Assembly (NCBI GenBank): GCA_964474245.1
Contig: CAYYRY010000002.1
Coordinates: 2,340 to 44,264 of the forward strand
Direction: 5' to 3'
Length of the DNA stretch: 41,925 nucleotides
From: an uncultured Ruminococcus sp.
GTDB lineage: Bacteria; Bacillota; Clostridia; Oscillospirales; CAG-272
The notes beneath the pieces were generated by a model. The model saw nothing but the letters and a program-made list of their open reading frames with translations, made no database searches and was not told the origin of the DNA. Below, piece by piece: positions 25,231-41,925 of this stretch; the first letter of the stretch is position 1; each line of letters starts with the position of its first letter. A program made the translations under genes and the position numbers.

Positions 25231-25665
25231 ATGGAGCTTACTTTGATTATCGGATCTCTTGCATTACTGACGATCGTTATCGGTGTTGTGATTGCGGTGT
25301 CGGTGTACCGTGCAGATTCCGGTGGGAGATATATCTGTGAATGCTGTGTAAGCAGATGTGATGCAGAAGGTAAGACAAGTGAAGAAGTCAGACTGAAGGG
25401 AAAGGGCAAGTGCGTTAAGCTTTCAAAGTTCCGTCTTGGGAAAACCGAGCTCGACGAATGCAACTGCCGTTTCATGGCGACGGACGGAGACTTTGCTTGG
25501 TTTGTTTCAGACAAGAAAGTATTTGTTAACGGAACCTATGTAAATAAGATAAAGCTTAGCTGCGACGGATATCCCGTTGAGGTAAAGAAGGAACCGTCTT
25601 CGAAGGAGTGTATCTGTGTAAGATACATACGCAACTCAGGATGGACACAAAATTTTAATTTGTAA
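25231..25665 (+). CDS. Small N-terminally anchored membrane protein whose cytoplasmic domain is paralogous to the vWA protein tail
   Basis: An AGGAG RBS precedes the start, and there is an N-terminal TM segment (LIIGSLALLTIVIGVVIAVSV). The domain aligns position by position with 24847-25185 (see finding). Confidence 0.65.
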   Translation: MELTLIIGSLALLTIVIGVVIAVSVYRADSGGRYICECCVSRCDAEGKTSEEVRLKGKGKCVKLSKFRLGKTELDECNCRFMATDGDFAWFVSDKKVFVNGTYVNKIKLSCDGYPVEVKKEPSSKECICVRYIRNSGWTQNFNL

Positions 25666-25741: not shown

Positions 25742-28700
25742 ATGTACCAGAAACTTTTGCTTAAAAATGATGGCGGTATCATTGATATTGCTCAGCAGTC
25801 CGAACAGGACAACTGTGCCGTTGTTTGTATCGGTCTCGGCGGTACCGGTGTAGACTGTCTTAAGACACTCAAGGCTAAGATCTATAACAGAGTACGTCCC
25901 GATGATCCCAATGCGGCTGTTCCCAAGTATTCTCACATTAAGTTCCTCGCTGTGGATACTGATAAGACCGGCTTGGAGAAGAGCAATGCGAAAGGCTCGG
26001 ATATCACAAAGATCAACATGGACAACGAGTTCTTTGATCTGTCCTATCCCGGAGATATCAGCAACTTCTTTAAGGCTAACGAAGGCGTTCTTGAGAACAG
26101 ACCCCATAACAAGGAATGGCTGAGACACCAGGATATCAACGTTCTTTCCGCGAAGGCAGGTGCGGGCGGTGTGCGTCAGCTCGGCAGATATCTGCTTATG
26201 GAAAAGGCCACAGACTTTGTATCCAAGGTAAGTAATCTTGTAAATCAGGCAAAGAGCGGTCTTACCAACCCCAAGACCTACATACACGTTTTCAGCGGCA
26301 TTTCCGGCGGTACCGGTGCCGGAACCTTCCTCGACGTATGCTATCTCATCCGTCAGGCACTGACCAACGATGATACAGACAGCTTCATTCTCGGCTACTT
26401 CTTCCTTCCCGACGTTAATATTGCAAACAATCTCGACAAGCAGACAGAGGCATACGTAAAGGTTAACGGATACGCTTCTCTCCAGGACCTTGACTACTGC
26501 ATGAACTTTGAGCGCAACGGTGACAAATGGTCACAGGTTTATAACGGTATCGGTCTTGTTGAAAGTCAGATGCCTCCCGTTGATATCTGCCATCTGATAA
26601 GCGCAAGAGATACAGCAGGTAACGTTATTCCCGGTGCATATAAGTATTCAATGAACGTTGTTACCGATTACTTTATGGACTTCGTTGTTAGGGTCAGCAA
26701 CAACTTCACCATGGAATCTCACATCGCCAACTATACAAATAAGAAGGCAATGATCAACAAGGAATTCGGTGCTACTTATGAGTACTGTGTTCTCGGTGCC
26801 TCCGCTGCGACCCTTCCCTTTAAGGAGGTTCTCACATACCTTGCTTCAGAGATGTTCGGCAAGTTCTCAGGTGTTCAGGACATAGTTCCCGGAAATGCAG
26901 GAACAGATGCATTTATCGCGGCAAACGGTCTTAAATATGACACTCTGTTTGCTCAGCTTGTACAGAGAGCCGATATGTCATTCCCCCTTCCCGACGTTAA
27001 GTGGGGTGACGCAAAGAATAACGACAACCTCACCGTTACGTACTTCACAGACCTTAAGGCAAAGGCTGAGGGTGTTATCGAGAGCAACTATTCAGCAATG
27101 ATCAAGGATATGGAAGGCTACGAGCCTACTGAAGGCAACGTTGATGCATCCAAATCCGTTATTACAAAAATCTATTCTGCACTCAGACTCGTTGCTGCAG
27201 ATCCTCAGAAGGGTCCCTTCTATGCGGCACACCTGCTCCGCAGCACCAGCACAAAGGACCTTATTGCCATTGTTGACGGATATATTGAAGAGGTACAGAA
27301 AAAGTATTCCCAGGAGAACATTCAGGAAGACAGACTCCGTCCCGAGTGGGAAGCATCCCAGACAGATTTCTTCAATAATGCAAGCTGGTTAAACGGCGGC
27401 GGAAAGTACGACAGATACCGCAACGCTACACGTAACCTTATCCTCCATTATACAAAGCTCACTGCATTCCAGAAGATGAAGGACTTCCTTGAAAGACTCC
27501 GCAAGCAGCTTGTAGACCTTGCCGATAACTTCATGGACGTTTTCAGAAACGTAATGAAATCCCTCATCGAAACCTTTGATGCAAACAAGCACTTCCTTGA
27601 GGAGCTTCCCGAAACAACCAACGGATATGAGTTCCCTCTTGCTACTATCAGTCAGCTTAAGGATACCCTTGACCTTACAATCAAGGAAATGGATATTTCC
27701 TCCAAGGCAACTGACTTCCTTAAGATGATGCTCAGCAAAGAAGGAGTCAAGGCTTGGATCAACAGCAATGAAAACGAGATCTACCGTGTAGTCAATAAGT
27801 ACTTCACAACTCTGTTTGCTGAGTACTCAAACAAGACAATGACAAGCTACCTCCAGGATAAGTATCACACCACCAATATGGATCAGCTTGTTATGGAGAT
27901 CCGCAATGACATTATGAATAAGCTTGACCAGAACGCAAATCCCATGTTCTGGACATCCACAGGTTACTCTATTTCAACAGCATCCCATATCGGATACGTA
28001 ACATTCCCCAACGTTTCTACTGAGGTTGATCTTGCTGCTCAGCAGCTTGCTGCATCCAAGCAGACAGGTGAGCTTACCGTAAGAAACAGCACTATTCAGG
28101 ACAGAATTTCCATTATGCGCTGTCTTGTCGGTGTTCCTCTGTTCGGTTATCAGGGTCTCCTTCAGTATGAGGACTCTTCAATCGGAAGCCCCATCATCGG
28201 TAAGCATCTCTATGAGGGTAAGCTCTATACAAACGATGAAGGTAAGAGCGCAACAGGACGTGACTGGAGATTCCTTCCCTCCCCCGTGCCGCTCAGCAAG
28301 ATGAACGCCAGCAACAACAAGGTACTCAGAGATAAGGCAGAAGCTGCTAAGGAAATTTATGAGCTTGCCGAAAAGAAGAATATCATAGCTCAAACTGCTC
28401 CTGATAACTACGGTATCTTTGTAATCAGCGCCGACTTTATGAAGAAGATATACGACGCACGTGATGCTGCTAACGGAAAGACCAAGGTTGAACAGCTTGA
28501 GGCTATCGCTGCAATTAAGGAGCTCATGGAAAGCATTGAGTACGAGCCTAAGAAGGTCGCTATCCCCAATGACGGTGCTACCTCACTTCCTGAGATGAAT
28601 AAGCGAATTATCAGAATCGACCACTTTGCATCATCAATCAAGCTTCAGGAAATGGTAAAAGCTGAAGTTGCAAAGTTCGAAGAGATCGACAAGATCATCG

Positions 28701-29137
28701 CTGAACTTGAGCCTAAGGAAGACAAGGATCTTGTCTCTTACCAGAACGGTATCTTTACCGGTGTTATCAAGATCACAGGTCCCGTAGTTAAGGTTGAAAA
28801 TGAATTCGGTGAGGAAACAGAGCTTTCCGCACCTGCTCATAAGCCTTGCGGTGCGATCCCGCTTTATCAGGCATTCCTCAACTTCAAGAAGCTTGACGCT
28901 GACACCCGCGCATACGTTGCGGAAGAGGCACAGAAGATTCTTGACGTATATCCTCTCAGCGACGATGCTGTAAAGGCGTGCAAGGTTGTATGGGCTCAGC
29001 TTAAGAACATTAAGCTGTTCGTTCAGACTGCTACAAAGATCTGTCCTCATGAGGTTGCAGACCTTAAGAAGTTCCTTCCTGAGCTTAAGGATGCACTTCA
29101 GGTATTTGGTATGACTTATTTTATTGACCTTGAATAA
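25742..29137 (+). CDS. Giant tubulin/FtsZ-like GTPase (Tubulin_2-type), 1131 aa
   Basis: AGGAG RBS. A T1-like loop CIGLGGTG lies at nt 25832-25849, and the tubulin signature SGGTGAG (within HVFSGISGGTGAGTFLDV) lies at nt 26306-26323. A long, mostly helical extension of about 800 aa follows. Confidence 0.8.
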   Translation: MYQKLLLKNDGGIIDIAQQSEQDNCAVVCIGLGGTGVDCLKTLKAKIYNRVRPDDPNAAVPKYSHIKFLAVDTDKTGLEKSNAKGSDITKINMDNEFFDLSYPGDISNFFKANEGVLENRPHNKEWLRHQDINVLSAKAGAGGVRQLGRYLLMEKATDFVSKVSNLVNQAKSGLTNPKTYIHVFSGISGGTGAGTFLDVCYLIRQALTNDDTDSFILGYFFLPDVNIANNLDKQTEAYVKVNGYASLQDLDYCMNFERNGDKWSQVYNGIGLVESQMPPVDICHLISARDTAGNVIPGAYKYSMNVVTDYFMDFVVRVSNNFTMESHIANYTNKKAMINKEFGATYEYCVLGASAATLPFKEVLTYLASEMFGKFSGVQDIVPGNAGTDAFIAANGLKYDTLFAQLVQRADMSFPLPDVKWGDAKNNDNLTVTYFTDLKAKAEGVIESNYSAMIKDMEGYEPTEGNVDASKSVITKIYSALRLVAADPQKGPFYAAHLLRSTSTKDLIAIVDGYIEEVQKKYSQENIQEDRLRPEWEASQTDFFNNASWLNGGGKYDRYRNATRNLILHYTKLTAFQKMKDFLERLRKQLVDLADNFMDVFRNVMKSLIETFDANKHFLEELPETTNGYEFPLATISQLKDTLDLTIKEMDISSKATDFLKMMLSKEGVKAWINSNENEIYRVVNKYFTTLFAEYSNKTMTSYLQDKYHTTNMDQLVMEIRNDIMNKLDQNANPMFWTSTGYSISTASHIGYVTFPNVSTEVDLAAQQLAASKQTGELTVRNSTIQDRISIMRCLVGVPLFGYQGLLQYEDSSIGSPIIGKHLYEGKLYTNDEGKSATGRDWRFLPSPVPLSKMNASNNKVLRDKAEAAKEIYELAEKKNIIAQTAPDNYGIFVISADFMKKIYDARDAANGKTKVEQLEAIAAIKELMESIEYEPKKVAIPNDGATSLPEMNKRIIRIDHFASSIKLQEMVKAEVAKFEEIDKIIAELEPKEDKDLVSYQNGIFTGVIKITGPVVKVENEFGEETELSAPAHKPCGAIPLYQAFLNFKKLDADTRAYVAEEAQKILDVYPLSDDAVKACKVVWAQLKNIKLFVQTATKICPHEVADLKKFLPELKDALQVFGMTYFIDLE

Positions 29138-29223
29138 ATCTTAGGGGTCACGTTCAATAATGTGCGCCTGTCGAGCATTTGTTGGATGTGACCCCGCACA
29201 TTTTATATTCTGAGGAGAAACTA

Positions 29224-31134
29224 ATGAAAACTGTAAAGGAATTAATTCATGCTTCTACCGCATTGCTTACAAATAACGGTATAGGAAGCTCTAATTATTC
29301 AAAGCCCAAATATCCTACCTGCGTTGTTTATTTCGGCAAGCGCAGTCAGCTTTATCATGATGAGCTGATCGGAGATGTTACCCGCGGTTGGGGCGGAAAC
29401 ACCGATTACGTAAAGTTTTATGTGATTGAGGATGTGGAAAGCAAGGTTCTGAAAAACGTACTTAGCGGAGAAGAGCTTTCCGATGAGGACGTCCGCGCGC
29501 AGATCACCGGACTGCTTTCTTCTCAGGATGTGTTCTCCGATATGAGATATGTGTCATTATACTGTGTTATGGATACCACGGATATCAAGGATGTTTCTGA
29601 ATTTGAAAAGTGGTATATGTCAGTGCAATACCTTGAGAAGCTCATAGGTGTTCCGACAACATCAATGCTGATGCTCATACTGAATCAGTCTCTGAATCTG
29701 GCTGAAAATGCGAAGCTTATCACGAAAAAACTCGGAGAGCTTTATGCTTCACCGGAGCTCGGCAGAGAAAATACACATATATATGACTCTGTATTTATTC
29801 TCAGTAACAGACTTAAGGACGGCTCCTTCAAAATATACGACCCGCAGATGGACGGCAACGCTTCTTCCACTCTTTCTTATAAGAACTTTAATCTGCTCGG
29901 CAACGTGATATTGCTCTCAAATACGAGGGATCCTGATTTTGATTCGAGAAAGCACAAGCTTTACGGGAACGATAAGCCTGCGGTCATTGCTTCATACCGT
30001 TATTTGCAGAAGCCTATGAAAGAGATCGTAATGATCGCACTGTCAAGTATCCTCGAGAAGCTTAAAGAGATGATCCTTACATATAATATTGATGCAGATA
30101 TACTTGGAAAGGCACTGAATATTACCTCAGGCCGTTCAAAGCTTCATGAGGAGATCTATACTTCGATCAAGGAGTATCTCCCCAATAATGATTTTATCAA
30201 TTATCTCCCCGGTAAGAGAGAGTCCGTCGGCAGTTTTGTTGACGTAGACCGTTCATCCTATGGATGTCTTCAGATGTTCATTGAGCAGAACCATCTGAAG
30301 ATCGTTAAAGAAAAGCTTGCATCAAACAAAGAATACGAGTACAGGACCATAGTATCCATGCTTTCAAGTAATCTTAATGCTGCTCAGCTTGTTAACGGAA
30401 TTCATGCAGACGTCAGAAAGACCACATACAGTAATGCAGAAATGGGTCTTGCCAACACTGACAGAATGAATGTTTTCCAGAGCATAGACATACAGGTAAA
30501 GCAGATGATCGCAGATGAGCTCAAGGTTCTGATAGACAAAGCCATATCTCAGTCGATTGATAAAGCAACTATGTGTATGGATGCATTCAGAGCACTGTGC
30601 GTTGAGTTCGAAAATGCATATGCGGTTGGAGAAGAAGGTACCCGCAGAAATCTGAAGAGCTTTTACGTTGATAAGATCAACAGATACTACAGTGATATCA
30701 ACAAGGTAAAGGCACTGCTTGTAAAGCTTCTTAACATTGATAACGGTAAGACGGAAATGCTTCAGGTATTAAACGACGAGCTTGTTCGTTTGTTTGAAAG
30801 CGATGCCGTATATAAGTATTCATATGCTCAGGAGCTTATGGCGCGTCTCGGAAGAGCAGGAAATGAACGTGAGATTCAGGAGCAGATCGCAAAGGAGCTT
30901 ATTGAAGGTCTTGAGAACCGCACCTGTTACTACACTAATTCCACGTATCACGGAAGAGTTATGGAAGCATATATGCTCAACACCTCCGATAATGAGGACA
31001 GCTTGACAGTTAAATACCTCAACGCCCGTTCCGATGAAGGTGGAATTACAAGAACGTTCTTTAACACCTGCAGCAACGATGCTGCTGAATCCATGTGGTT
31101 CTATCATTGTACACTTGATAACCTGTTAATGTAA
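29224..31134 (+). CDS. Unknown 636-aa protein, possibly a degenerate (nucleotide-loop-less) paralogue of the tubulin-like GTPase
   Basis: A GAGGAG RBS precedes the ATG at 29224; the track start at 29179 is a TTG inside a hairpin. The weak collinear resemblance is VVYFGKRS vs VVCIGLGGTG, LYCVMDTTD vs HVFSGISGGTG, and SVFILSNRLKDGS vs ICHLISARDTAGN. Confidence 0.55.
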   Translation: MKTVKELIHASTALLTNNGIGSSNYSKPKYPTCVVYFGKRSQLYHDELIGDVTRGWGGNTDYVKFYVIEDVESKVLKNVLSGEELSDEDVRAQITGLLSSQDVFSDMRYVSLYCVMDTTDIKDVSEFEKWYMSVQYLEKLIGVPTTSMLMLILNQSLNLAENAKLITKKLGELYASPELGRENTHIYDSVFILSNRLKDGSFKIYDPQMDGNASSTLSYKNFNLLGNVILLSNTRDPDFDSRKHKLYGNDKPAVIASYRYLQKPMKEIVMIALSSILEKLKEMILTYNIDADILGKALNITSGRSKLHEEIYTSIKEYLPNNDFINYLPGKRESVGSFVDVDRSSYGCLQMFIEQNHLKIVKEKLASNKEYEYRTIVSMLSSNLNAAQLVNGIHADVRKTTYSNAEMGLANTDRMNVFQSIDIQVKQMIADELKVLIDKAISQSIDKATMCMDAFRALCVEFENAYAVGEEGTRRNLKSFYVDKINRYYSDINKVKALLVKLLNIDNGKTEMLQVLNDELVRLFESDAVYKYSYAQELMARLGRAGNEREIQEQIAKELIEGLENRTCYYTNSTYHGRVMEAYMLNTSDNEDSLTVKYLNARSDEGGITRTFFNTCSNDAAESMWFYHCTLDNLLM

Positions 31135-31165
31135 TTGCAGAGCCGTAGGCTGAATGGAGATTGAT

Positions 31166-31819
31166 ATGATGAACGTAAAATTAGTTGATTTTGATAACGA
31201 ACATTACGTTGCAAGTGTTACTCATACCGAAGGTACACTTCAATGGAGATCAGCAGGTAATACTCATCAGATAATCATTCGCGGTGAGTTTGGTGCTGAT
31301 ATTAATTTCGGAGATAAAGAGAAGACGGTCCTTGAACAGTACACAAAGGAGCAGTTCGAAGCGGAAAGAGAGACCAATTATGCCGATGAGCTGCACCTTA
31401 CCATAGTAAAAAAAGGTACGTTTGTGGATAGTTATAACGTAACGGTAACCCCCGCTACGTATGCTGTAATCGGATGCAGCTATGAGCCCGAGACAAATAC
31501 CATTACAGTATATATTCCCACACAGGATTGCCTGTACCAGTGTAAAGTATTCTCACAGGTATCAGTAAGGATCACGCAGGAACCCATAAAGAAAAAGTTT
31601 CTCGGAATTTTCGGTAAGGATGAGAAGCCGTATTATACAATACATATTCCTCCGATCCCCGGATACGTTGACGGAAGTCTTAAGTATACTTTCGACGGCT
31701 GCAAGTATGAGTATCCTATAACCAAGGCAATGCTTGGTCAGAACGTAAGTGTTCCCGCATATAACGGTAAAGCTCCTAAGATAAATGTTTCGGAGAAGAA
31801 CGGCTATAAGATCATATAA
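31166..31819 (+). CDS. Unknown beta-rich 217-aa protein
   Basis: A GGAG lies 6 nt upstream of the ATG at 31166. The gene is tightly packed in the operon. No family was recognised. Confidence 0.55.
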   Translation: MMNVKLVDFDNEHYVASVTHTEGTLQWRSAGNTHQIIIRGEFGADINFGDKEKTVLEQYTKEQFEAERETNYADELHLTIVKKGTFVDSYNVTVTPATYAVIGCSYEPETNTITVYIPTQDCLYQCKVFSQVSVRITQEPIKKKFLGIFGKDEKPYYTIHIPPIPGYVDGSLKYTFDGCKYEYPITKAMLGQNVSVPAYNGKAPKINVSEKNGYKII

Positions 31820-31836: not shown

Positions 31837-33408
31837 ATGCCCGGAATAGAAATAACCTGCCCTTACTGTTTTTCTAAGTTCGCAGATGATGCAGTTCATT
31901 TCCGAATGGAAACAGTATTTTCTGAAGAAGACCTTGACCCTAAGGGTGAAGGCAGAGACCGTCAGGAAGTTGCAACTGACAGAAGATTTAAAAGCGAAGA
32001 AGTAAAAGCTCAGCTTGCTGAGTATGATCTCAGAGAAAAGTTCGTACCTCATAATGATGAGCCGTACGAAGAATTCTGGAAGACCTATAACGGTACTACA
32101 GAAAAGACGTCTGTCAGCCTTGACGGAAAAACAGCAAAGGTAATGCCTTACCACAGACCTGTGTTCAGCCCCAAATATCCTGATCACAGACAGTATTTCG
32201 GAAAGCCGAATAGTGATAGAGATGTAATAAATGAAAACGGCATGACATATGCTGCATATGACTGTTTCGGTAAGCAGACTCAGCGCAGAGTATGTCCCCA
32301 TTGTCATAATCCTCTGCCGGGTGCATACGGAAAGCATCCCGTGATGTTTATTTCCATAATCGGTATTACCCGTGCCGGTAAGACAGTATATCTGTCACAG
32401 CTTTGTAAATACATATCCCGTCAGCTTGCAGACTTCAATATTTCTGTAACACCTACCTCCATTTATGCAAGAGAATATCTTGAAGATAACCCTGTAGTTA
32501 TGGGCAAAGAGCTTCCCAAAGGTACTCCTAAGGAGCAGCTTCTCCAGCCTCTTTGCTTCGACTTATCATACACCAAAAACGGAATAAATGAGAACAGAAC
32601 TGTCGTATTCTACGATATTGCCGGTGAGAACTGTGATGACATTGCTCTCGAAAAGATCCATAGCTTCGGTCCCTTTATTGAGCACTCCGACGGTATTATC
32701 CTCCTTATCGACCCCGAACAGTTCAAGACCTCAAGTGAGGCAGGAGAACCTACTAAGGTTCTTGATACCATCCACGCATTGTTTGCAAACAAGTCCTCTG
32801 AAGCTGTAAGAAAGCTTCCTCTTGCGATATGCGTATCCAAGGGTGACAAGGTTGCAAACGAAATGATCGGTTCTCCTCTTTACGACGTAGAGAGAATAAT
32901 GGACAGAAACGGCGAGTATGTGACCAAGTTCAATGCACAGAGCTATAACGTCATTCATGACGGAATGAAGCGATTCGTTCAGAATATTGCCAACCCTCTT
33001 TCGGTTACACTCAATACCAAATACGATAACTTCAATTACTTCATCATGTCTGCTATCGGTACCGATACAAAGAAGCTCGAAGGCACCAACCTTGATACTC
33101 CTGCAGGTCCCGTAGTACCTAAGAGAATAATCGAGCCTCTTGTATGGATGCTTCATAAATTTGATTTTATCGGCTGTGAAGGAGAGCTTCATGAGCCTAA
33201 GGACTGGATCTGTGACTGCGACGGTACTAAGCACCGTATCCGTGTAAACCAGTACTGCCCTGTATGTAAGCTGAACAAGGAGAGGACCTGGAAGTGCCCC
33301 GGATGTAAAACTGAAGGTCAAACAGGTGAATGGTGTAATCAGAAGGGCTGTAAGTACAACCGTTTCGGCAAAAAAAGAACTATTTGGGATTCGTTTAAGA
33401 AAAAATAA
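31837..33408 (+). CDS. Zn-ribbon-flanked P-loop GTPase (TRAFAC-like G1/G3/G4 motifs)
   Basis: CPYC (aa 8-11) and CPHC (aa 153-156) lie upstream. G1 GITRAGKT is at nt 32362-32385, G3 DIAG at nt 32614-32625 and G4-like SKGD at nt 32836-32847. The C-terminus is Cys-rich (CDCD...CPVC...CPGC...C..KGC). Confidence 0.75.
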   Translation: MPGIEITCPYCFSKFADDAVHFRMETVFSEEDLDPKGEGRDRQEVATDRRFKSEEVKAQLAEYDLREKFVPHNDEPYEEFWKTYNGTTEKTSVSLDGKTAKVMPYHRPVFSPKYPDHRQYFGKPNSDRDVINENGMTYAAYDCFGKQTQRRVCPHCHNPLPGAYGKHPVMFISIIGITRAGKTVYLSQLCKYISRQLADFNISVTPTSIYAREYLEDNPVVMGKELPKGTPKEQLLQPLCFDLSYTKNGINENRTVVFYDIAGENCDDIALEKIHSFGPFIEHSDGIILLIDPEQFKTSSEAGEPTKVLDTIHALFANKSSEAVRKLPLAICVSKGDKVANEMIGSPLYDVERIMDRNGEYVTKFNAQSYNVIHDGMKRFVQNIANPLSVTLNTKYDNFNYFIMSAIGTDTKKLEGTNLDTPAGPVVPKRIIEPLVWMLHKFDFIGCEGELHEPKDWICDCDGTKHRIRVNQYCPVCKLNKERTWKCPGCKTEGQTGEWCNQKGCKYNRFGKKRTIWDSFKKK

Positions 33409-33460: not shown

Positions 33461-35824
33461 ATGAAATATCAGCAGATATGTTATACAAGACTGAATGATA
33501 TCGTAGGCGGAACGCAGGTAGGATTTACAACCTTTAATTCTTCTCCTGATATACCTGAAGATGTTGTCGAGTATTTCAAAGGAACACAAAGTGGTAACCA
33601 GGGCGAGAAATGGCCGATAGACAAAGGTCAGGCTGTTGTCTGGCAGTTTGTTGCAGACGAAAAAAGCAAAACCGTATTTAATACAAGAGTTCTCTTCGAT
33701 ACAGCACTAAAAGACGATAAAGACAAAGACAGTCGCGGAACCATATTCTCTCACTCATTCATATTTCCCATGGAGGATTTCATAAGAGATCCCCAAAGCG
33801 TGCTGAACGTGGATGACAGCAACTATGGTTTTGACCGTAAAAGCACAGAGACTATTCCGCAGGAGCTTGTAAGAACCGAAACTCTTTCTCTTGAGGAATG
33901 CGTTGAATCTTTAGGTATGGATTCAAAAAGTTACTCAAAGCTTGTTTATGCTGTATATAAGTTCCTGACCGATAAAGCCAATAAACCTCTTCATATTATC
34001 TGCGATAATTCAAATGAGAGTATCATCAGGTACATGGTATGTATTTATGCGGCACTTCCGTTTGAATTCAGAAAGAAAATAACTTTCCAAAGCAGCAATA
34101 TCGGAAGAATTCACACTATCAACAGAACGATAATCTTTGAAAACGAATTAAGTAATTACAATGATTATTATATTGAGCCTGTTTCCTCCGAAAACAACTT
34201 TATGACCACCGCTGTGGAGAAAAAGATATCCAAGTACGATTTTATAAAAATCGTGCCTGAAAATTATGCATCAGGTCAGAATTTTGATGAATTATTCAAA
34301 GCCATAGCAAATAAGCTCGCTCTGTTTGACAGTGCAGCGACCACAAAACTGGAGCTTTATAAGATTGCGTACAATTTGCTTCTGGATGACACCAATGACG
34401 GTTCGGTAATGACACCGGAAGATCTCCAGGATCGCTTATATGAATTGCTTCTTTCGGTAGACCATCCGTTTATTGACAGACAGATCCAGTTTGTGCTCGG
34501 TGATATCATAGAGTACAAGTTTGATCTCAGTGATGCCATCGCAGAGGTGCTCGGCCGTAAGCTTGCAGTAACAGAGGACAGAGATCTTCTCGAATGCGGT
34601 TACAGATACAACTTCGGCAGAATCAGCAGAATGGATATTGATGAAGGCGTAAAGTATCTGAATGACGTATACGGAGACCGCACGTCTGAGGCATTCATTC
34701 AGATAAGGTCACTTCTCAATGAAGACGATAAGGGCAAAGAAATTCTGTCACGATTCTATACCAAGTACGTTGCCGCTGAAGTCGTAGCTGACAGAGATAA
34801 TATAATCGCTTTCTATGACGAGACCAAGGATCTTGCAGACAGAAGTAAGGTCGTGCTGTCCATAGAGAATTTTGTCCGTGTATATCTGAAGGCAGAGGTA
34901 GAGCTTACCGATGACCCCAAAGCGCTGCTTGCTGAAGCAGAATATATACTGTCTCAGGTTCTTGCAGATCAGCCGGATATGTGTGCAAAGATCTTAGAAT
35001 ATGTAAAGCTTCTATATTGGAATAACCTTAAGTTTGAGAACATAAGCTTTGCTCCCGACAGCGGTTATGAAGGCGTGCGTCTCGATAATAATAAGAAGTG
35101 CAATATAGTGTTCACTCTTATCGATATCTTCGAATACTTCAAGAATTCAGATATTGTAAGTCTTGCTCCCGTTGTAAACACATTCAAGCCCTCTGAGCTT
35201 GGATTAGGACAGTCCGAGTATGCCGTCGCAATTCAGAAGCTTCATAATGAATGTATTGCATATATCAATGCATACGGAGATTCAAATGCGGATATGGACA
35301 GATGGATACTCGTATCATTGCCGCTTGTTTACATTAAGAAAAGCCCGGCATCATTCTTAATTGACAACAATATCGTATCCGTATGCGAAAACTTCGAGGA
35401 AGCCTACCTTAACTCTGCTTTCCTGAGCAGCGAAAACAATCACGAGCTGTTCAAGGGATGGATGGAGCAGTATGCCGATGCAAAGCTTGAAAACTCTGAG
35501 ATCGCTGCAGAGATTCTCAAAACGATCAAGATGAACGAGAAGAGAATTGAAAATGAGAGACGTCAGGCGGCAAAAGAGTACAAGAAGGCAGAGAAGGAAA
35601 GAGCAAGAGAAGAAAAAGAGCTTCTGAAAGCACAGAAAAAAGCTGAAGCTGATGCTGAAAAGCTTGAAAAAGAGCGTCAGAAGGCTGTTCGTAAAAATGC
35701 TGAGTCAGATCCTTTCAATACAGAGGACACTACTGAAAAGCCGAAGTCGATATTCAATAAGCTGTTTGGCGGTTTAAAACAGAAAAAGAATAACGACGAC
35801 GATTTCGGAGGAAATGAAGATTGA
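33461..35824 (+). CDS. 787-aa protein with GAP1-like (GTPase-associated protein) N-terminus and a K/E-rich coiled-coil tail
   Basis: The N-terminal pattern MKYQQICYTR...GG.QVGFTTFNSS resembles, from memory, the QL.YTS...G..GFQ start of GTPase-associated proteins. The C-terminus is a charged heptad-like segment (ERRQAAKEYKKAEKERAREEKELLKAQKKAEADAEKLEKERQKA). Confidence 0.5.
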   Translation: MKYQQICYTRLNDIVGGTQVGFTTFNSSPDIPEDVVEYFKGTQSGNQGEKWPIDKGQAVVWQFVADEKSKTVFNTRVLFDTALKDDKDKDSRGTIFSHSFIFPMEDFIRDPQSVLNVDDSNYGFDRKSTETIPQELVRTETLSLEECVESLGMDSKSYSKLVYAVYKFLTDKANKPLHIICDNSNESIIRYMVCIYAALPFEFRKKITFQSSNIGRIHTINRTIIFENELSNYNDYYIEPVSSENNFMTTAVEKKISKYDFIKIVPENYASGQNFDELFKAIANKLALFDSAATTKLELYKIAYNLLLDDTNDGSVMTPEDLQDRLYELLLSVDHPFIDRQIQFVLGDIIEYKFDLSDAIAEVLGRKLAVTEDRDLLECGYRYNFGRISRMDIDEGVKYLNDVYGDRTSEAFIQIRSLLNEDDKGKEILSRFYTKYVAAEVVADRDNIIAFYDETKDLADRSKVVLSIENFVRVYLKAEVELTDDPKALLAEAEYILSQVLADQPDMCAKILEYVKLLYWNNLKFENISFAPDSGYEGVRLDNNKKCNIVFTLIDIFEYFKNSDIVSLAPVVNTFKPSELGLGQSEYAVAIQKLHNECIAYINAYGDSNADMDRWILVSLPLVYIKKSPASFLIDNNIVSVCENFEEAYLNSAFLSSENNHELFKGWMEQYADAKLENSEIAAEILKTIKMNEKRIENERRQAAKEYKKAEKERAREEKELLKAQKKAEADAEKLEKERQKAVRKNAESDPFNTEDTTEKPKSIFNKLFGGLKQKKNNDDDFGGNED

Positions 35825-37287
35825 ACGTAGATAAATTGATGGAGACCGGCAATGTGTATTACAGTCTCTGCAGTGGGTATAACTTCTATGTTTTGGCATC
35901 ACGTCAAAAGTATAAGATATTCGGAAAAGAAAAGAACGTTATACAGCACATAAAAACAGGTGAGTATTTTTATGTTTCTGAGTTTCCTGAAGATCTGAAT
36001 CGTACTTTTGACCTGAATTACTGGGTCAAACTTATTAGAAATCCTGTTGACTTAAAACATTTCATATGGCCGGTAGACGTAATTGAGTGGGATGCGACAG
36101 ACAAAAATAACGTGAAATACGCCCTTGTATTCCCGAATCGTGCGCTTCCTGTTTATGATGATTTTGCAAATACTTTAAAAAACGGTATGGATGTCAATTT
36201 TGACGTTCCGTGGGTGAGAAAGATCATCAAGGATTTTCTTGATGCTTGGTGTAATTTTCATTCCAAGGGATATGCATATCATGCATTTTCCAAAGGAAAT
36301 ATGTTCTATAACCGTGATAAAATGGAGGTTATGTTCGATTTCAGCTTCCTGACTCAAAGAACAGACACCCTCTATGAGAAAAAGTTTATCAATCCGGAAT
36401 ATATTACCCCCGACTATGCGGATCCGTATTACTATTATAAGCATAATGCTAATCAAATGGACCTCGCATCGGACTATTATACCGTAGCAGTATTTTTGTT
36501 CAAGCTGTTGATCGGACGTCTTCCGTATGAGGGTAAGGTATTTGATAACGTTGCGAATACTACCGAAACAGAGCATAATACCTGGATAAAAAGATATCAT
36601 AAGAATTCGTATTTTATCTTTGATACGAAAGATGATACTAACCGTATCGGCGGTGAATTCGGATTTGCTGATGAGTTGGTATACGAAAACCGTTGGTTGG
36701 GACTTTCGGAAAACGTCAGAAACATGTTCCATAACGTATTCCAGACAGCCAATGCTCTCAGAACGACAGAAGAATTGTACTATTATACTCCGAAGCAGTG
36801 GCTGGATGCATTGTTTGGAGAGACGGATGATGTTCCCCTTCACTACAGAGAAGCTCAGCTTGAGGAGGTAACGAAAATTTCAGTGCCTCTGAAGACCTCG
36901 GTACCAAGCAAAGTCAGTGTTCCGAAAAAGCCTGAGATCCTCAAAAAGGTAGCTCCCGTTTCCCCTGCTAAAAAAACGTCTGCGGAACCCGAAGTAAAGG
37001 TTACTGCCAGCCCTGTAGCTCCTAAGCCTCAGCCCAAGGCTCAGCCTGCGTCCACCTCAAACGAGTCGGAACCTAAGCAGACAGAAGTGAAGTTTACTCC
37101 GGTATTTCCTAAATCGGATACTTCATCTGAAGTTGATGCCCGCCGTAAGCTGATTTTCGATCTTAAATCAAAATTAGATGCTGTGAAAACGCCTGCTCCG
37201 ATGACCGAGGAAGGCAAGGCGCTTTTGACGAAAATGGTAACAATTCTTAATACGGCTATAAAATCCGGTAAAATTGCTAATAAGTAA
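35821..37287 (+). CDS. Protein-kinase-fold protein lacking the catalytic Asp (predicted pseudokinase) with a P/K/A/S-rich disordered tail
   Basis: The start overlaps the upstream stop (TTGA); the alternative ATG is at 35839. FHSKGYAYHAFSKGNMFY (nt 36277-36300) takes the place of H.DLKP.N. FDFS (36334-36345) takes the place of DFG, and DLASDYYTVAVFLFKLLIGRLPYEG resembles subdomain IX-X. Confidence 0.6.
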   Translation: MNVDKLMETGNVYYSLCSGYNFYVLASRQKYKIFGKEKNVIQHIKTGEYFYVSEFPEDLNRTFDLNYWVKLIRNPVDLKHFIWPVDVIEWDATDKNNVKYALVFPNRALPVYDDFANTLKNGMDVNFDVPWVRKIIKDFLDAWCNFHSKGYAYHAFSKGNMFYNRDKMEVMFDFSFLTQRTDTLYEKKFINPEYITPDYADPYYYYKHNANQMDLASDYYTVAVFLFKLLIGRLPYEGKVFDNVANTTETEHNTWIKRYHKNSYFIFDTKDDTNRIGGEFGFADELVYENRWLGLSENVRNMFHNVFQTANALRTTEELYYYTPKQWLDALFGETDDVPLHYREAQLEEVTKISVPLKTSVPSKVSVPKKPEILKKVAPVSPAKKTSAEPEVKVTASPVAPKPQPKAQPASTSNESEPKQTEVKFTPVFPKSDTSSEVDARRKLIFDLKSKLDAVKTPAPMTEEGKALLTKMVTILNTAIKSGKIANK

Positions 37288-37296: not shown

Positions 37297-37379
37297 CTTG
37301 TTTACATAATAAACAAGAGAGGTATGACTGACAACAAAATTTTAAGGTGTTTATGAGACTGCTTCAGGGTAGTCTCATA
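37297..37379 (+). other. Two perfect hairpins in the 134-nt gap after the kinase-like gene
   Basis: CTTGTTTA-CATAA-TAAACAAG lies at 37297-37317 and TATGAGACT-(10 nt)-AGTCTCATA at 37352-37379. Neither has a T-tail. Confidence 0.5.
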
Positions 37380-37421
37380 GGCACAACGAAAATACTGCCA
37401 AAGTGCAGAATGGAGAGAAAT

Positions 37422-38537
37422 ATGGATTTCGGAGCTATAACCAACCGAATTACAAAAAACCGAATTGGGAATTACGAAGCCAAAGACGGTTCTGCAGTAA
37501 GTGTCCAGCTGAGAAATTTGATAGCACAGCATGGCTACGATATATTCAAGGATAAGACTGCTCTGACAGAAGAAATACAGAAGTTCACGCTGTCAAACAC
37601 ACTGAAGAGTCAGCTTACCCTGGTTTTCAGTTGCAGTACGCTTTCTGATTTTATTCTCAATTCCAAGTCAGACCTGAATATGGTCGATATCGATAACGTT
37701 GTTCACAGTGTTGTATCCTCCACAGGATTGACTTACGACTGTGCCATTTCAATAATCGCTGATACTTTTGATGCCTGCGGTTTGAGATTCGCAATAGAAT
37801 ACGGTCCCAAATTGGTAGACGGTACCGTGAAGAACGGACTCTCAGCAATGATGCCTTCGGGCGTGGCTGAAGCTGAGATCAAAAAGACTCAGGAAATGTA
37901 CAACAAGTTTAATTCCACCTACGCTAACGGTATTCAGATAGCGCAGAAGGAACAGGCAAAGAATGAAGCCACAGCGGTCGTAAACGCAATGAACCGTCTG
38001 TGTTCCGCAGGGCTTGCGGAAGGCTATTATTTGCTTGGCAGATGCTATGCTTTTGGAGAGTGTTGTACCAACGTGGATTCCAAAAAGGCACTTGAATATA
38101 TGAAGATAGCTGCAGATAAGGGCCACGTAGCAGCAGCCGGATATCTTGGTGATATGTATTATGAGGGAGATGCGTTTACCAGAGACTATACCCTTGCTCA
38201 TCATTACTATACCCGTCCCGGCACCAAGGCGCTCGGTAAAAAGCAGCAGGATGCCCTGAAGGATATCTATAAACAGGGTGGTGCAAACAAACTTACCATG
38301 ATATTCTCCGGTATCGTGTTTGCACTTATGATCGCTTTTGTTGTGTTCTTCCACGAAGGCATCTTCTCAGGCTCAAGCAGACTGGTAGTAGGCATTATTA
38401 TGCTTGTTTTGTCACTGGTGCCTCACGTAATTGTGATTCAATACAGTATACTTAATAAATATAACGGTATGCGTTGGCTTCTTATGATACAGTTCTTTAT
38501 CTGGGCACTGTATGCGTTTATTTTGGTTCTTGCATAA
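37422..38537 (+). CDS. Sel1-like-repeat protein with three C-terminal TM helices
   Basis: I prefer the ATG at 37422, which has GGAGAG upstream. Sel1-type repeats are AGLAEGYYLLGRCYAFGE...ALEYMKIAADKGHVAAAGYLGDMYYEG...LAHHYY. Three hydrophobic helices lie at the C-terminus. Confidence 0.7.
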   Translation: MDFGAITNRITKNRIGNYEAKDGSAVSVQLRNLIAQHGYDIFKDKTALTEEIQKFTLSNTLKSQLTLVFSCSTLSDFILNSKSDLNMVDIDNVVHSVVSSTGLTYDCAISIIADTFDACGLRFAIEYGPKLVDGTVKNGLSAMMPSGVAEAEIKKTQEMYNKFNSTYANGIQIAQKEQAKNEATAVVNAMNRLCSAGLAEGYYLLGRCYAFGECCTNVDSKKALEYMKIAADKGHVAAAGYLGDMYYEGDAFTRDYTLAHHYYTRPGTKALGKKQQDALKDIYKQGGANKLTMIFSGIVFALMIAFVVFFHEGIFSGSSRLVVGIIMLVLSLVPHVIVIQYSILNKYNGMRWLLMIQFFIWALYAFILVLA

Positions 38538-38545
38538 TAGGGGGA

Positions 38546-40162
38546 ATGAAAATGACACAACTGAAACACATTAAAAATTTGGGAATCAGCCTTGTTTTTG
38601 CGGCGATTCTGATCTACGTACTCATTCTCAACCCCTCAACAGTAGGCTTGGTTTCAGCAGTAGTTGCAATCGGTCTGCTTCTTCTGATCGCATTTGCATT
38701 TAACAAAAATCAGATGGTCGTTCAGAAGTTTGATATGTACATATTAGTCACCTTTTTTGGCTATTACGCAATCAACTACCTGAATATGATAGAGACCTTT
38801 TCCGCAAACGTATTTGTGGGATCAATGGAGAATTACGAGGCTTTCCAGATCATATTGCTGATCGTCTCGATAATCCTTGGACTGGTGTTCAATGCAATAG
38901 GCGAAAACAGAGTAACAACGATCGCTAAGGTTATATTCAAGACCATCGGAGTATTACTCCCACCTATGGGATTATCCGTCTTTTGCTGGGGAGGCTTCTC
39001 AGCAAGTAATCTTGAAGCTCTTCTGTTTATCGGCGTTGTATGTGCGCTGATCGCATTTGCAAGAGGCGTCAGAACTGGTGATGCCACTGAGATCAGAAGA
39101 CCCATGCGCATAGCGTTGTGGCTTGGTATTTTTACTGTTCTGATATCGGTATTCTTCCCGTACTATGAGATCGATTCCCGTTATTTCATATCATATTTTT
39201 CATCAATACTGCTTAGATGGTATATAGTACTGATCCTTTCACTTATCTTGCTTTCAACTATTGTCATCGGAATAAGACAATCCAACAATAAGGTTGATAC
39301 AGACGGTTTGTTTTTGATCGGTCTTCTCGGCCTTCTCTGGGTAGCTAAGGCGGCTGTGTACTTCTACTTCATCTTCAGCTGGATCGCAATATGTGTATAC
39401 CTGGTCTTAATGATCGGCTTCTTCAACCGTTTTGCCAAGCGTAAAAACAACAATTCCGCGGAAGTATCCCTTTACTCATCAATCGGTAAGAATGAGTTCT
39501 GGTGGATCATAATTGCAGCAGTAAGTATCGTCGCAGCAGTGTTCTTTATCAATAAGGGATACATATTCTTAGCGCTGTCACTTGGTATCGGTGCATTTGT
39601 TGTTTCGCATATTCATAAATTGGTTACAGGCTGGGTAAGCGAAGCCGTATACTGGGTATCTCTACTGTTTGCCGTTGCGTTTTCTGCGTGTATGTTAGCC
39701 GTACAAAACGGCTACAGCCCTGTCAAGATAGGTATTATCGCTGCACTGTTTATTTTCTCAGCTATCGTTATGGTACTTCTGTGTCATAATAACTCTATCG
39801 GTAAGAATAAGTTCAAAGCAGGCAAGATAGCAATGGTGCTCGTATTTGCATTACTCGTAGTAATTCCCGCATACAAGGGCGGATCTCATATCGAGATGGA
39901 GATATATGACGGCGACGGAAGTTATGATCCTGCGATATCTTTCGAAGCGGTAGCGGACGGCAAGAATAATGAAATTGTCGGTATGAGATACGTTTGGTCA
40001 GATTCCTTTATGTACGATCAGGGTGCCATGACGGTATCCTCCTCCAATGACGAGTATATGATCATTGAAAACAGACATTTGATAGTTTGGACAATGGACA
40101 GCAACGGCATTGAAACAAGAAGTGACTATTGGTTTGCTCCGGATCATTTACCCCATCGATAA
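38546..40162 (+). CDS. Polytopic (about 12 TM) membrane protein with a roughly 100-aa soluble C-terminal domain, unknown function
   Basis: It starts 8 nt after the Sel1 gene stop, at ATG 38546 or 38552. There are successive hydrophobic helices. No transporter family was recognised. Confidence 0.7.
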   Translation: MKMTQLKHIKNLGISLVFAAILIYVLILNPSTVGLVSAVVAIGLLLLIAFAFNKNQMVVQKFDMYILVTFFGYYAINYLNMIETFSANVFVGSMENYEAFQIILLIVSIILGLVFNAIGENRVTTIAKVIFKTIGVLLPPMGLSVFCWGGFSASNLEALLFIGVVCALIAFARGVRTGDATEIRRPMRIALWLGIFTVLISVFFPYYEIDSRYFISYFSSILLRWYIVLILSLILLSTIVIGIRQSNNKVDTDGLFLIGLLGLLWVAKAAVYFYFIFSWIAICVYLVLMIGFFNRFAKRKNNNSAEVSLYSSIGKNEFWWIIIAAVSIVAAVFFINKGYIFLALSLGIGAFVVSHIHKLVTGWVSEAVYWVSLLFAVAFSACMLAVQNGYSPVKIGIIAALFIFSAIVMVLLCHNNSIGKNKFKAGKIAMVLVFALLVVIPAYKGGSHIEMEIYDGDGSYDPAISFEAVADGKNNEIVGMRYVWSDSFMYDQGAMTVSSSNDEYMIIENRHLIVWTMDSNGIETRSDYWFAPDHLPHR

Positions 40163-40224: not shown

Positions 40225-40767
40225 ATGAAAAGGATAATTAAAATTACGGCTGTAATTCTTATTCTTGCTGTTATGGCAACATTGATGGCGGGATGCGAAG
40301 CTGATGAGAAAAAGCCCGGACCCGAAGTCGGAAAATGGCACGCGGAAGTAAAGATCAAGGATCTCGGAAGCTCCATGTCTGATGAAGATAAGGCTATTCT
40401 TGCAATGCTTGCGGGTAATATCATGTTTGAGGTAGACGTAGAGTTTGCCGAAAACGGTACGTTTTCGTATTTCATGAATACAGATAAGCTTGAATCAGCC
40501 GTATCCAATTCGTTTACAACTATTTTAGGCTTTATGCTCAATTTCGACATATCGCTGTTTGTAGATAGGATCGTTGAAGCGGTGTTGCAGGATATGATAA
40601 AAACGTCCAATTATGCATTTTCCGGTGAATATGCAACGTCTGAAAGTGAACTGATCACTGCCACCGATTCATCCGGCTTCAACATATACTTTAAAGTATA
40701 TGGCGGTAGCTTGGTACAGGTAAATGATAACGGTGATAAGATACTGACCTTTACAAAAGCTGAATAG
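40225..40767 (+). CDS. Putative lipoprotein, unknown function
   Basis: A signal peptide ends in the lipobox LMAGC. GAGAG lies upstream of the ATG. Confidence 0.65.
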   Translation: MKRIIKITAVILILAVMATLMAGCEADEKKPGPEVGKWHAEVKIKDLGSSMSDEDKAILAMLAGNIMFEVDVEFAENGTFSYFMNTDKLESAVSNSFTTILGFMLNFDISLFVDRIVEAVLQDMIKTSNYAFSGEYATSESELITATDSSGFNIYFKVYGGSLVQVNDNGDKILTFTKAE

Positions 40768-40775
40768 CACAAACA

Positions 40776-40806
40776 AAGAGGCTGACTTGATCAGTCTCTT
40801 TATTTG
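40776..40806 (+). terminator. Intrinsic terminator ending the first cluster
   Basis: AAGAGGCTGA-CTTGA-TCAGTCTCTT forms a 10-bp stem with one G-U pair. TATTTG follows. Confidence 0.65.
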
Positions 40807-40851
40807 TAAAAGAATATTCACACGTTTGAATAGAATTATGGTATAATATCA

Positions 40852-40980
40852 ATGAAGAAGAAAATCGACCACTTTGTCCGTTCTCCCCGTTTGCAGGAGA
40901 TAGTAAAGCATGAGCTTGACAAGATAAACGAGATAGAACAGATTCTTAAAGACCTCGAGGATGCTGACGATATCATTTAA
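40852..40980 (+). CDS. Possible 42-aa acidic helical micro-protein (below the track cut-off)
   Basis: My own translation gives MKKKIDHFVRSPRLQEIVKHELDKINEIEQILKDLEDADDII. The ATG lies only 4 nt after a TGgTATAAT element (40839-40847), so the mRNA would be near-leaderless. No SD sequence is present. Confidence 0.25.
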   Translation: MKKKIDHFVRSPRLQEIVKHELDKINEIEQILKDLEDADDII

Positions 40981-41106
40981 AAGTAATTCCCATAATTACG
41001 CTTAATATGATATAATACTTACACACGTCAAAGTGCGTCACTCGGGTATTTTAAGTTGCAAACCGATTGAGTGAAAAACAAATTCTGATACTGTAAGGAG
41101 AAAACC

Positions 41107-41925
41107 ATGAACCAATTACTTAGGTTACGATCCGGCGGCGGAATACAGATACCGAATATTCATGTTGAACAGGGCATACCAACGGTATGTATCGGTCTCG
41201 GAGGTGCGGGAACCGATTGCTTGAATATGCTGAAATCAAAGGTATATGATACCGTTATTCCCGATGATCCTGACGTAAGAGCGCCGATTTATTCTAAGAT
41301 AAAGTTTTTGGCTGTCGATTTTAACAGACCACGTATTGAACGCGAATGGAATCGCAATAAATTAGCAATTGATCCTGACAGAGAGTTTTTCGACTTATCC
41401 CATTACAGCGTTGTAGAAGAAATAAGAAACAACCACGAGCTGATAGATGCCGATCCGTGCTACAGAGATTGGTTTCGCAGTACTGAGCTTGTATCACTTG
41501 GTGGTAATCAGCTGAGTCCTGTCAGACAAAGCGGAAGGTACTTGTTCATGAAAAAAGTACCGGAATTCATTAATGCAGTGATGCGTGAGATAGATTATGC
41601 TGTCAGATCACACCACTCACGCAATGTAAATATCCACATTTTCTGCGGACTTTGCGGTAAAACAGGCTCCGGAATATTTCTTGATGTATGCTATCTTTTA
41701 CAGCACGCGTTGGATATGCTTGGATACGAAGGCACAATATTCGGATATTTCTTCCTTCCTGAGGTTATTATTGCAAATCATGTCGACGATGATACTAAAA
41801 GATACCTCAAGGTGTACGGCTATGCCGCCCTTCAGGAGCTTGATTATTGCATGAGCTTCGACAGTAACGGAGACAAATGGTCACAGCTTTATCCTTATGT
41901 CGGTAAGATAGAAAGCACCCGTCGT
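41107..41925 (+). CDS. Second tubulin/FtsZ-like GTPase paralogue (3'-truncated by window end; not in the ORF track)
   Basis: An AAGGAG RBS precedes the start, and 273 codons are open to the last base. CIGLGGAG is at nt 41194-41211 and HIFCGLCGKTGSGIFLDVCYLL has its signature at nt 41653-41673. Long collinear matches to the 25742 gene include IKFLAVD, FGYFFLP and NGDKWSQ. Confidence 0.8.
   Translation, partial: MNQLLRLRSGGGIQIPNIHVEQGIPTVCIGLGGAGTDCLNMLKSKVYDTVIPDDPDVRAPIYSKIKFLAVDFNRPRIEREWNRNKLAIDPDREFFDLSHYSVVEEIRNNHELIDADPCYRDWFRSTELVSLGGNQLSPVRQSGRYLFMKKVPEFINAVMREIDYAVRSHHSRNVNIHIFCGLCGKTGSGIFLDVCYLLQHALDMLGYEGTIFGYFFLPEVIIANHVDDDTKRYLKVYGYAALQELDYCMSFDSNGDKWSQLYPYVGKIESTRR

Follow-up and report, generated by a model that had tools for sequence, protein, structure and literature searches.

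Does a second tubulin-like gene at the end of a tubulin-containing gene cluster open a further cluster of its own, or does it belong to the one that precedes it? The question is raised by a stretch of 41,925 nucleotides from an uncultured Ruminococcus sp. (contig CAYYRY010000002.1; hereafter the window), in which a single co-oriented cluster extends from 23122 to 40767 and is followed, at the window edge, by the start of a second gene of the FtsZ-like 1 (FtsZl1) family, the equivalent of Pfam Tubulin_2 (PF13809). We refer to the products of the first and second tubulin genes as T1 and T2, and the nucleotide-binding elements of the fold are always called loops (T1 loop, T3 loop, T4 loop). An earlier note on this DNA had taken T2 for the beginning of a second, diverged cassette. 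On balance it appears probable instead that T2 is an accessory second FtsZl1/Tubulin_2 paralogue of the 23122-40767 system, separately transcribed and with an eroded nucleotide pocket, which would act as a GTPase-impaired partner or regulator of T1.

Much of the setting is already known. Makarova and Koonin (2010, PMC2875224) described FtsZl1 genes in the company of vWA genes, kinase genes and genes for a divergent GTPase. Kaur et al. (2020, eLife 9:e52696, PMC7159879) reported that Firmicutes DO-GTPase conflict systems of the GAP1-N2 type have two tubulin-domain genes and two vWA genes, one of the latter fused to YtkA, and listed kinases among the themes of Actinobacteria; such diversifying systems typically contain paralogous copies, in agreement with what the earlier note had expected. 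Hence neither the gene family nor the system is new, nor is the occurrence of two tubulin genes in it, and T2 is a new, unusually divergent member. We found no experimental work on vWA / FtsZl1 / DO-GTPase / GAP1 systems in the literature, and PADLOC v2 does not include them.

T2 and its nucleotide-binding loops

T2 opens with an ATG at 41107 and continues for 273 sense codons up to the window edge with zero stops, whereas the remaining five frames of 41107-41925 contain 10-23 stops; given the base composition, a stop-free run of this length has a chance of about 3e-8. The translation matches Pfam Tubulin_2 with 109.6 bits (cut-off 27, E=2.6e-31), residues 27-257 covering profile positions 1-241 of 356, and BLASTP aligns it collinearly with the first 275 residues of T1 at 119/275 identities (43%, E=3e-71). 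Corresponding peptides of the two proteins include CIGLGGAGTDCL/CIGLGGTGVDCL, HIFCGLCGKTGSGIFLDVCYLL/HVFSGISGGTGAGTFLDVCYLI and FGYFFLPEV/LGYFFLPDV, and both proteins contain IKFLAVD and NGDKWSQ. Translation and the family match bear out the reading frame that the earlier note had placed behind an AAGGAG site, and the alignment recovers the collinearity and all the peptide matches that it had quoted.

T2 and T1 share 53% nucleotide identity and 35% identity at third codon positions, with a non-synonymous divergence (dN) of 0.54 and a saturated synonymous divergence (dS) of about 2.1. Because of these values we regard the duplication as old and T2 as selected; omega (dN/dS) for T2 is roughly 0.25 or less. 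As judged from the sequence comparison, T2 is a genuine, anciently diverged tubulin-like paralogue, and it has been kept under purifying selection for most of the time since duplication. The earlier note had likewise called it an old paralogue, and a recent duplication of T1 is rejected both on the third-position identity and on the family tree, where a T1+T2 grouping has 0% bootstrap support. The G+C content at third codon positions (GC3) is 0.418 in T2 compared with 0.526 in T1.

In the tree, paralogues mostly group by genome. The two tubulins of Ruminococcaceae bacterium AB4001 are sisters in 100% of bootstraps, and those of four further sets among the related loci described below (L026, L069, L008 and L010/L028) show the same lineage-specific pairing. 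T2 is never sister to T1 or to the distal copy of AB4001 (0% bootstrap each), and we reject T2 as an orthologue of that distal copy. The placement of T2 is unstable: 37% of replicates make it sister to the AB4001 pair, 27% join it to the tubulin of locus L054 and 16% to the T1 subclade, and it is best described as an apparent long-branch lineage within or near the clade that contains T1.

An AlphaFold2 (AF2) model of the 273-residue fragment has a predicted local distance difference test score (pLDDT) of 78 and a predicted template modelling score (pTM) of 0.81, with secondary-structure elements in the same order as in T1; confidence is low only at the N-terminus and in the T3 region (pLDDT <50, residues 131-138). 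A structure search with this truncated model placed tubulin, TubZ and FtsZ on top at E=6e-3 to 0.1, among Rossmann-fold dehydrogenases. The model of T1 residues 1-420 (pTM 0.76) gave a Foldseek top 50 consisting entirely of FtsZ, CetZ, tubulin, TubZ or BtubA, with a best E of about 1e-6 (PDB). When PDB sequences were searched with a profile, all matches were spurious ones to coiled coils.

Alignment of the family profile with E. coli FtsZ by hhalign puts IGLGGTG on the T1 loop, AGAGG on the T3 loop and GGTGSG on the T4 loop, with K185 of T2 opposite G107. T2 is changed in each of these blocks. Its T1 loop reads IGLGGAG for the family's IGLGGTG, retaining every Gly, and the substituted position is Thr in 141/164 family members and Ala in T2 and 5 others. 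In the T3 region three consensus residues are replaced (Table 1). The T4 loop of T2 departs from the canonical signature GGTG[SA]G by a Lys for the second Gly, as the earlier note had read it, and the other signature residues are present. This column is Gly in 137 of the 164 members, the remainder having A, S, V, N, M and a few others, and Lys only in T2; no other case of Lys was seen among these 164 plus 95 aligned family members, and the degenerate pattern GKTGSGxFLDVCY gave 0 matches in JGI metagenome contigs. Given that AAA is two substitutions away from any Gly codon, K185 is not a single-base sequencing error.

Across the 54 columns that are at least 90% conserved, T2 deviates at 6 (family median 1) and retains 48. 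Three of the six deviations are placed, namely T35A in the T1 loop, G182K in the T4 loop and N218I in the PDVN block, and the T3 change is additional to them; FLDVCY, GYFFLP, LDYCM and NGDKWSQ are unaltered. T2 is like FtsZl1 proteins in its hidden Markov model match, its T1- and T4-loop blocks, its FLDVCY and GYFFLP motifs and its vWA, Ser/Thr-kinase-like and divergent GTPase neighbours, and unlike them in the signature Lys, which is unique among the ~260 members inspected, in a T3 loop that is not conserved and in the Ala of the T1 loop. With T2 as query, zero relatives were found in genome-contig and viral-contig collections. An exact look-up of two complete window proteins gave no record, and an exact 57-mer from the window had 0 matches in metagenome contigs.

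Extra tubulin copies in related loci

A profile-based scan of GTDB species genomes yielded 77 related loci, for each of which we fetched DNA to at most 10 kb either side of the tubulin match. Hosts are mainly Oscillospiraceae, Lachnospiraceae and other Clostridia, and also include Bifidobacterium, Atopobiaceae and Streptococcus suis. Searches by tblastn with the window proteins gave the conserved order vWA, tubulin, u651, u221, DO-GTPase, GAP1 (GTPase-associated protein 1) and kinase, u651 and u221 being conserved proteins of 651 and 221 residues. Most of the loci have one tubulin gene only inside the fetched flanks. Two to four are present in L008, L010, L020, L026, L028, L034, L040, L069, L070 and L073, and L078 and L080 are likewise multi-tubulin. 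The position of the extra copy varies: in L080 it is 3' of the vWA gene and 5' of the primary tubulin, in L078 it precedes the vWA gene, and in AB4001 and the window it is at the distal end; the extra tubulins of Ruminococcaceae bacterium P7 and of L012 are probably distal as well.

The only fully syntenic relative of the window is AB4001 (L006+L011), which has the order vWA, s144 (a partial vWA-protein paralogue; Table 1), T1, u651, u221, DO-GTPase, GAP1, kinase, Sel1, transmembrane (TM) protein and a second tubulin of 967 aa (JHXJ01000005.1; L011:9992-12895), which lies ~15 kb 3' of the first on the same strand. Like T2, this distal tubulin follows the kinase, Sel1 and TM genes, and its T3 and T4 loops, YNAGRN and GNTGGG, have degenerated where those of T2 have; ~32 residues before its T3 loop are missing. 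Unlike T2 it is much younger, with 60% identity to its own T1 over 998 aa vs 43% in the window, and it is preceded by neither an intervening lipoprotein gene nor a relic. The genes on its 3' side are a Zn-ribbon, a Sel1-like, an alpha/beta hydrolase, a Mur ligase, a Ddl and an M15 dipeptidase gene, and a second GTPase/GAP1/kinase set is absent downstream of it. Within the fetched DNA, two separate DO-GTPase or GAP1 matches were found in 0/77 loci.

The tubulin gene that stands closest on the 5' side of u651 and the DO-GTPase was defined as the primary copy, and any other copy as accessory. Of the primary copies 64/65 have a canonical T4 signature, as against 9/19 accessory copies (Fisher p=3e-7); for the T3 loop the figures are 61/65 and 8/19 respectively (Fisher p=4e-6). 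A context-free check by length class, made on 50%-identity representatives, gave a canonical T4 signature in 39/57 forms of 700-1049 aa and 71/77 forms of at least 1050 aa (p=5e-4), and a canonical T3 loop in 22/57 and 57/77 (p=4e-5). Among these representatives a non-canonical T3 loop accompanies 22 of the 24 non-canonical T4 signatures. Because the substitutes are diverse (A, S, N, L, V, M, E, K), there appear to have been many independent events of loop loss. These counts suggest that extra tubulin copies in these systems often have eroded phosphate-binding loops. We found no published statement of a preferential loss of the T3 and T4 loops in extra copies, or of the distal position of the second copy.

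Several loci show other kinds of additional tubulin. L078:10001-11344 and L080:10001-11398 are short stand-alone Tubulin_2 genes of 447 and 465 aa, both with GATGSG, and short genes of this type recur beside full systems in many metagenome contigs. The one in L078 lies upstream of the vWA gene, behind a divergent helix-turn-helix gene; L080 has a coupling-protein gene of a type IV secretion system 5 kb upstream, a hint of a mobile element. In Pseudolactococcus hodotermopsidis (NZ_BLLI01000026.1; L001:2289-3517) a truncated 382-aa tubulin gene lies 5' of the full system. Its product shares 72% identity with residues 1-362 of window T1, and behind it comes a fragment of the vWA C-terminus; the vWA/tubulin junction seems to have been partially duplicated in tandem. 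A metagenome-assembled Lachnospiraceae genome (JBGUJH010000106.1; L054:120-13429) has a 1147-aa tubulin-like gene with a degenerate T3 loop, which gave the highest tblastn identity to T2, 45%. It is preceded by TIR, TIR-Sel1-TPR, TPR and HD-domain genes, DO-GTPase and GAP1 were not detected in 10 kb upstream, and the locus may be a different tubulin-containing defence module. In P7 the distal tubulin is 30 kb 3' of the primary one, and the extended island contains an IS21-type element (rve integrase and IstB; L038:5159-7425) flanked by Zn-ribbon surface-protein genes (PASTA/YARHG, BspA-LRR) and the distal tubulin.

The cluster at 23122-40767 and the leader of T2

Bases 1-22700 of the window carry housekeeping genes, including those for FakA, Tex, MurJ, RibF, a PBP5-type carboxypeptidase, YidC and Jag, and a tRNA-Glu; the window is bacterial chromosome. 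Its G+C content is 0.47-0.51 in the housekeeping part (4000-18000) and 0.41-0.46 across the cluster (22000-41925), and this lower G+C and the GC3 of T2 are consistent with an accessory island of mixed history. The features of the cluster and of T2 are collected in Table 1.

Table 1. Features of the tubulin-containing cluster and of the T2 unit (window coordinates)
Feature	Position	Strand	Basis
Membrane-anchored vWA protein, first gene of the system	23122..25188	+	Pfam VWA E=5.5e-16
s144, 144-aa paralogue of the TM and C-terminal domain of the vWA protein	25231..25665	+	Similarity
T1, primary FtsZl1/Tubulin_2, 1131 aa; canonical loops GLGGTG, AGAGG, GGTGAG	25742..29137	+	Pfam Tubulin_2 E=3.8e-60
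u651, conserved 651-aa protein, function not assigned	29179..31134	+	In 42/77 loci, directly 3' of primary tubulin
u221, conserved 221-aa protein	31154..31819	+	In 24/77 loci, same position
DO-GTPase with N-terminal zinc ribbon (CxxC pair)	31837..33408	+	Pfam DO-GTPase2 PF19993 E=5.1e-14
GAP1, highly polar K/E-rich C-terminal tail	33461..35824	+	Pfam GAP1-M 25.9 bits, cut-off 24
Protein-kinase-like protein	35821..37287	+	Pfam Pkinase E=7.9e-6, 25.9 bits, below gathering score 31.7
Sel1-repeat protein, C-terminal TM segments	37347..38537	+	Pfam Sel1 E=6.7e-10; AB4001 homologue in equivalent position
Multi-pass membrane protein	38474..40162	+	Sequence; 35% identity to gene preceding AB4001 distal tubulin
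180-aa lipoprotein-like ORF, signal peptide then Cys	40225..40767	+	Sequence
Intrinsic-terminator-like 11-bp hairpin and U-rich tail, between upstream operon and T2 unit	40775..40807 (hairpin 40775-40801)	+	Folding
42-codon micro-ORF, probable relic of a tubulin-like gene 3' end; homologous part 40861-40971	40852..40980	+	Similarity to T1
Promoter-like site TTCCCA, 18 nt spacer, TG-n-TATAAT	40987..41016	+	Consensus match only
Ribosome-binding site AAGGAG, 6 nt 5' of T2 ATG	41095..41100	+	Read from sequence
T2, start of second FtsZl1/Tubulin_2 gene, 273 codons, cut by window edge	41107..41925	+	Translation, BLASTP, Pfam
T1-loop motif GLGGAG of T2, Thr to Ala	41194..41211	+	Family alignment, FtsZ GVGGGG
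T3-loop region GGNQLSPVRQSGRY of T2, consensus A-G-G to L-S-P	41500..41541	+	Aligned to FtsZ GLGAGANP
T4 tubulin signature GKTGSG of T2, K185 codon AAA 41659-41661	41656..41673	+	Aligned to FtsZ G107

A vWA gene was found in 70/77 related loci and is directly 5' of the tubulin gene wherever the order was read. The window has a single one, although a second may lie beyond the edge, and YtkA had no Pfam match in the window. The s144 protein is 30% identical to residues 556-687 of the vWA protein (E=7e-19); standing alone between the vWA gene and T1, it makes the vWA protein a second system component with a partial extra copy. For u651 there were zero Pfam matches, and weak PADLOC matches to Csn2 (E ~6e-4) were treated as spurious. 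The window GAP1 has no Pfam match to GAP1-N1 or GAP1-N2 even at E up to 1, and we infer the GAP1-N2 subtype of the system from its tubulin context. The kinase-like protein weakly matches the PD-T4-6 kinase models of PADLOC (E=7.6e-6), whereas neither of the tubulins had a match in PADLOC (v2), nor did the vWA protein, the GTPase and GAP1. The Sel1/TM and multi-TM ORFs overlap by 64 nt, and the TTG start of the latter is probably too far upstream. The lipoprotein-like ORF has no homologue in AB4001; a relationship to the C-terminus of the AB4001 TM protein was rejected, with zero similarity.

From its gene content, the cluster most likely represents the Firmicutes 'tubulin theme' of the GAP1-N2-type GTPase-centric conflict systems. 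It is like that theme in its zinc-ribbon DO-GTPase, polar-tailed GAP1, two tubulin genes and TM components, and in a vWA protein with an extracellular vWA domain and TM segments. It differs in having a kinase-like gene, in the absence of a Pfam match to GAP1-N2 and in the position of the second tubulin, which is distal (15 kb away, with its own predicted promoter) and not adjacent.

Between the cluster and T2 lies a short leader in which we found each of the elements listed by the earlier note, namely the terminator, the micro-ORF, the TG-extended -10 element and the lack of a vWA gene directly upstream of T2. The hairpin has a folding energy (dG) of -17.9 kcal/mol (z=-4.96), and 0/200 shuffles fold equally well. 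The promoter-like site has TGATATAAT at 41008-41016 with TTCCCA 18 nt upstream, and matches 10/12 consensus positions plus the TG extension. A Rfam scan found one tRNA in the window and no match in the T2 leader. With a terminator, a promoter-like site and a strong ribosome-binding site, T2 is predicted to have its own transcription unit.

The micro-ORF resembles residues 958-994 of T1 (49% over 37 aa; E=7e-10 pairwise, E=1e-5 by tblastn of the whole window) and the extreme C-terminus of the AB4001 distal tubulin (52% over 25 aa). It lacks a ribosome-binding site, and its sole -10-like element ends 5 nt before its ATG. By this similarity it is probably the leftover 3' end of a lost third tubulin copy; a domesticated mini-protein is less likely. 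Most simply, the relic implies that tubulin copies were gained and lost in the past at the junction upstream of T2.

Interpretation of T2

As an accessory paralogue of the 23122-40767 system, T2 would retain the structural core of the GTPase domain with diverged phosphate loops T1, T3 and T4, and would bind or hydrolyse GTP poorly or differently. It could then serve as a non-catalytic partner of the canonical T1, in the form of a co-assembling, capping, nucleating or decoy/titrating subunit, and may modulate a GTP-dependent assembly for which the DO-GTPase/GAP1 switch is the proposed trigger. In polymers of the tubulin superfamily the nucleotide is enclosed by two successive subunits, of which one contributes its T1-T6 face and the following one its T7 face (Nogales et al. 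1998; Lowe and Amos 1998). It is from this sandwich geometry that a poorly hydrolysing partner is proposed here; polymerisation of FtsZl1 proteins is itself putative, and the function of the system is a prediction. A second tubulin is an expected part of one system because Kaur et al. (2020) give the Firmicutes versions two.

A number of points weigh against this assignment. Makarova and Koonin (2010, PMC2875224) questioned whether FtsZl1 proteins form polymers at all, and the window has one vWA gene and no YtkA fusion, as compared with the two vWA genes of the systems of Kaur et al. T2 is visible only to codon 273; its C-terminal part, in the family a long helical or coiled-coil extension, and its downstream neighbours are beyond the window edge, and no orthologue of it was found in the collections searched, where the best identity was 47% among 1.84 billion representatives. 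The hhalign match to E. coli FtsZ by which the loops were mapped is weak (probability 30%, E=5.5e-4). The primary and accessory counts are not phylogenetically independent, and about half of the accessory copies retain canonical loops, so that 'accessory' need not mean 'inactive'. By analogy with the GK[ST] of P-loops, a Lys before Thr might also contact phosphate, in which case nucleotide binding may be retained.

The proposal of the earlier note, that T2 opens a second diverged system or an adjacent independent module with the remainder beyond the window edge, seems to us unlikely. In its favour, T2 lies in a terminator-bounded unit with its own promoter-like site, it is not a recent T1 copy and differs from T1 in GC3. 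In L078/L079 a short additional tubulin gene precedes a complete system of vWA, tubulin and DO-GTPase genes, and the tubulin of L054, with its degenerate T3 loop, comes after TIR-TPR and HD genes with no DO-GTPase detected in 10 kb upstream. However, nothing comparable follows the distal tubulin of the syntenic AB4001, where two small accessory genes give way to housekeeping genes, and in none of the 77 loci did the fetched DNA show two separate DO-GTPase or GAP1 matches. Furthermore, a vWA gene directly precedes the first tubulin of related clusters and none precedes T2, and Kaur et al. (2020, PMC7159879) assign both tubulin genes to a single system. To read T2 as opening a second cassette is probably wrong. 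It is less probable still that T2 is a redundant copy decaying into a pseudogene, with loop changes that reflect relaxed constraint. Such decay would fit the six deviations from conserved columns, the relic fragment directly upstream of T2, the decayed copies of L001 (382 aa), L024 (fragments) and L028 (603 aa) and the internal and C-terminal deletions of the second AB4001 tubulin. Against it, T2 has an open frame of 273 codons, a strong ribosome-binding site and a confident AF2 model outside the T3 loop, and it has kept 48/54 conserved columns and a low omega despite saturated synonymous sites; neutral decay over such a time would have disrupted the frame. T2 is under purifying selection, and therefore a pseudogene is unlikely.

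The earlier note had also considered a heteropolymer pair, which is plausible but fits only in part: one copy has a degenerate pocket, yet the pairs are lineage-specific and the two genes lie 15 kb apart in separate units. In its strict form, T2 would be a fully active GTPase, or one of changed nucleotide specificity, in an obligate heterodimer with T1 after the manner of alpha/beta-tubulin or BtubA/BtubB. FtsZ signature mutants, such as ftsZ84, alter nucleotide use, and a Lys at this position could contact phosphate. The resemblance to those pairs lies in two paralogous tubulin-superfamily proteins within one system, one pocket canonical and one altered, and NGDKWSQ, directly after the predicted core helix, is identical in T2 and T1. 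In contrast to them, there is no conserved orthologous pair across taxa, the paralogues clustering by genome (AB4001, L026, L069, L008, L010/L028) and not as the two orthologous groups of an ancient pair. The T1 and T2 genes are neither adjacent nor co-transcribed, unlike btubA/btubB, and most related loci have one tubulin gene only within 10 kb flanks. We consider the obligate heterodimer as improbable as the pseudogene.

Preferring, then, T2 as the accessory paralogue of one system, we note a broader and more speculative extension, which we hold to be rather unlikely. Extra FtsZl1 copies in general, T2 being an extreme example, might be dedicated GTPase-dead 'pseudo-tubulins', each paired with a canonical copy, in a convergent use, repeatedly evolved in bacteria, of the logic of alpha/beta-tubulin. 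If this were true, every longitudinal interface would have one hydrolysing and one non-hydrolysing site, and the copies would cap, seed or gate an immune- or stress-triggered polymer under the DO-GTPase/GAP1 switch.

For the annotation of genomes, our data advise caution: a distal tubulin gene should not be scored as a new system. Among gut Firmicutes and Actinobacteria the vWA / FtsZl1 / DO-GTPase / GAP1 systems are widely distributed, and they have been predicted to act in membrane remodelling (2010) and in biological conflict (2020). Extra copies that are selected and yet repeatedly lose canonical loops provide a testable handle on whether these systems assemble as catalytic plus non-catalytic subunits, and T2 and the AB4001 pair could be used as natural mutants for such questions of assembly.

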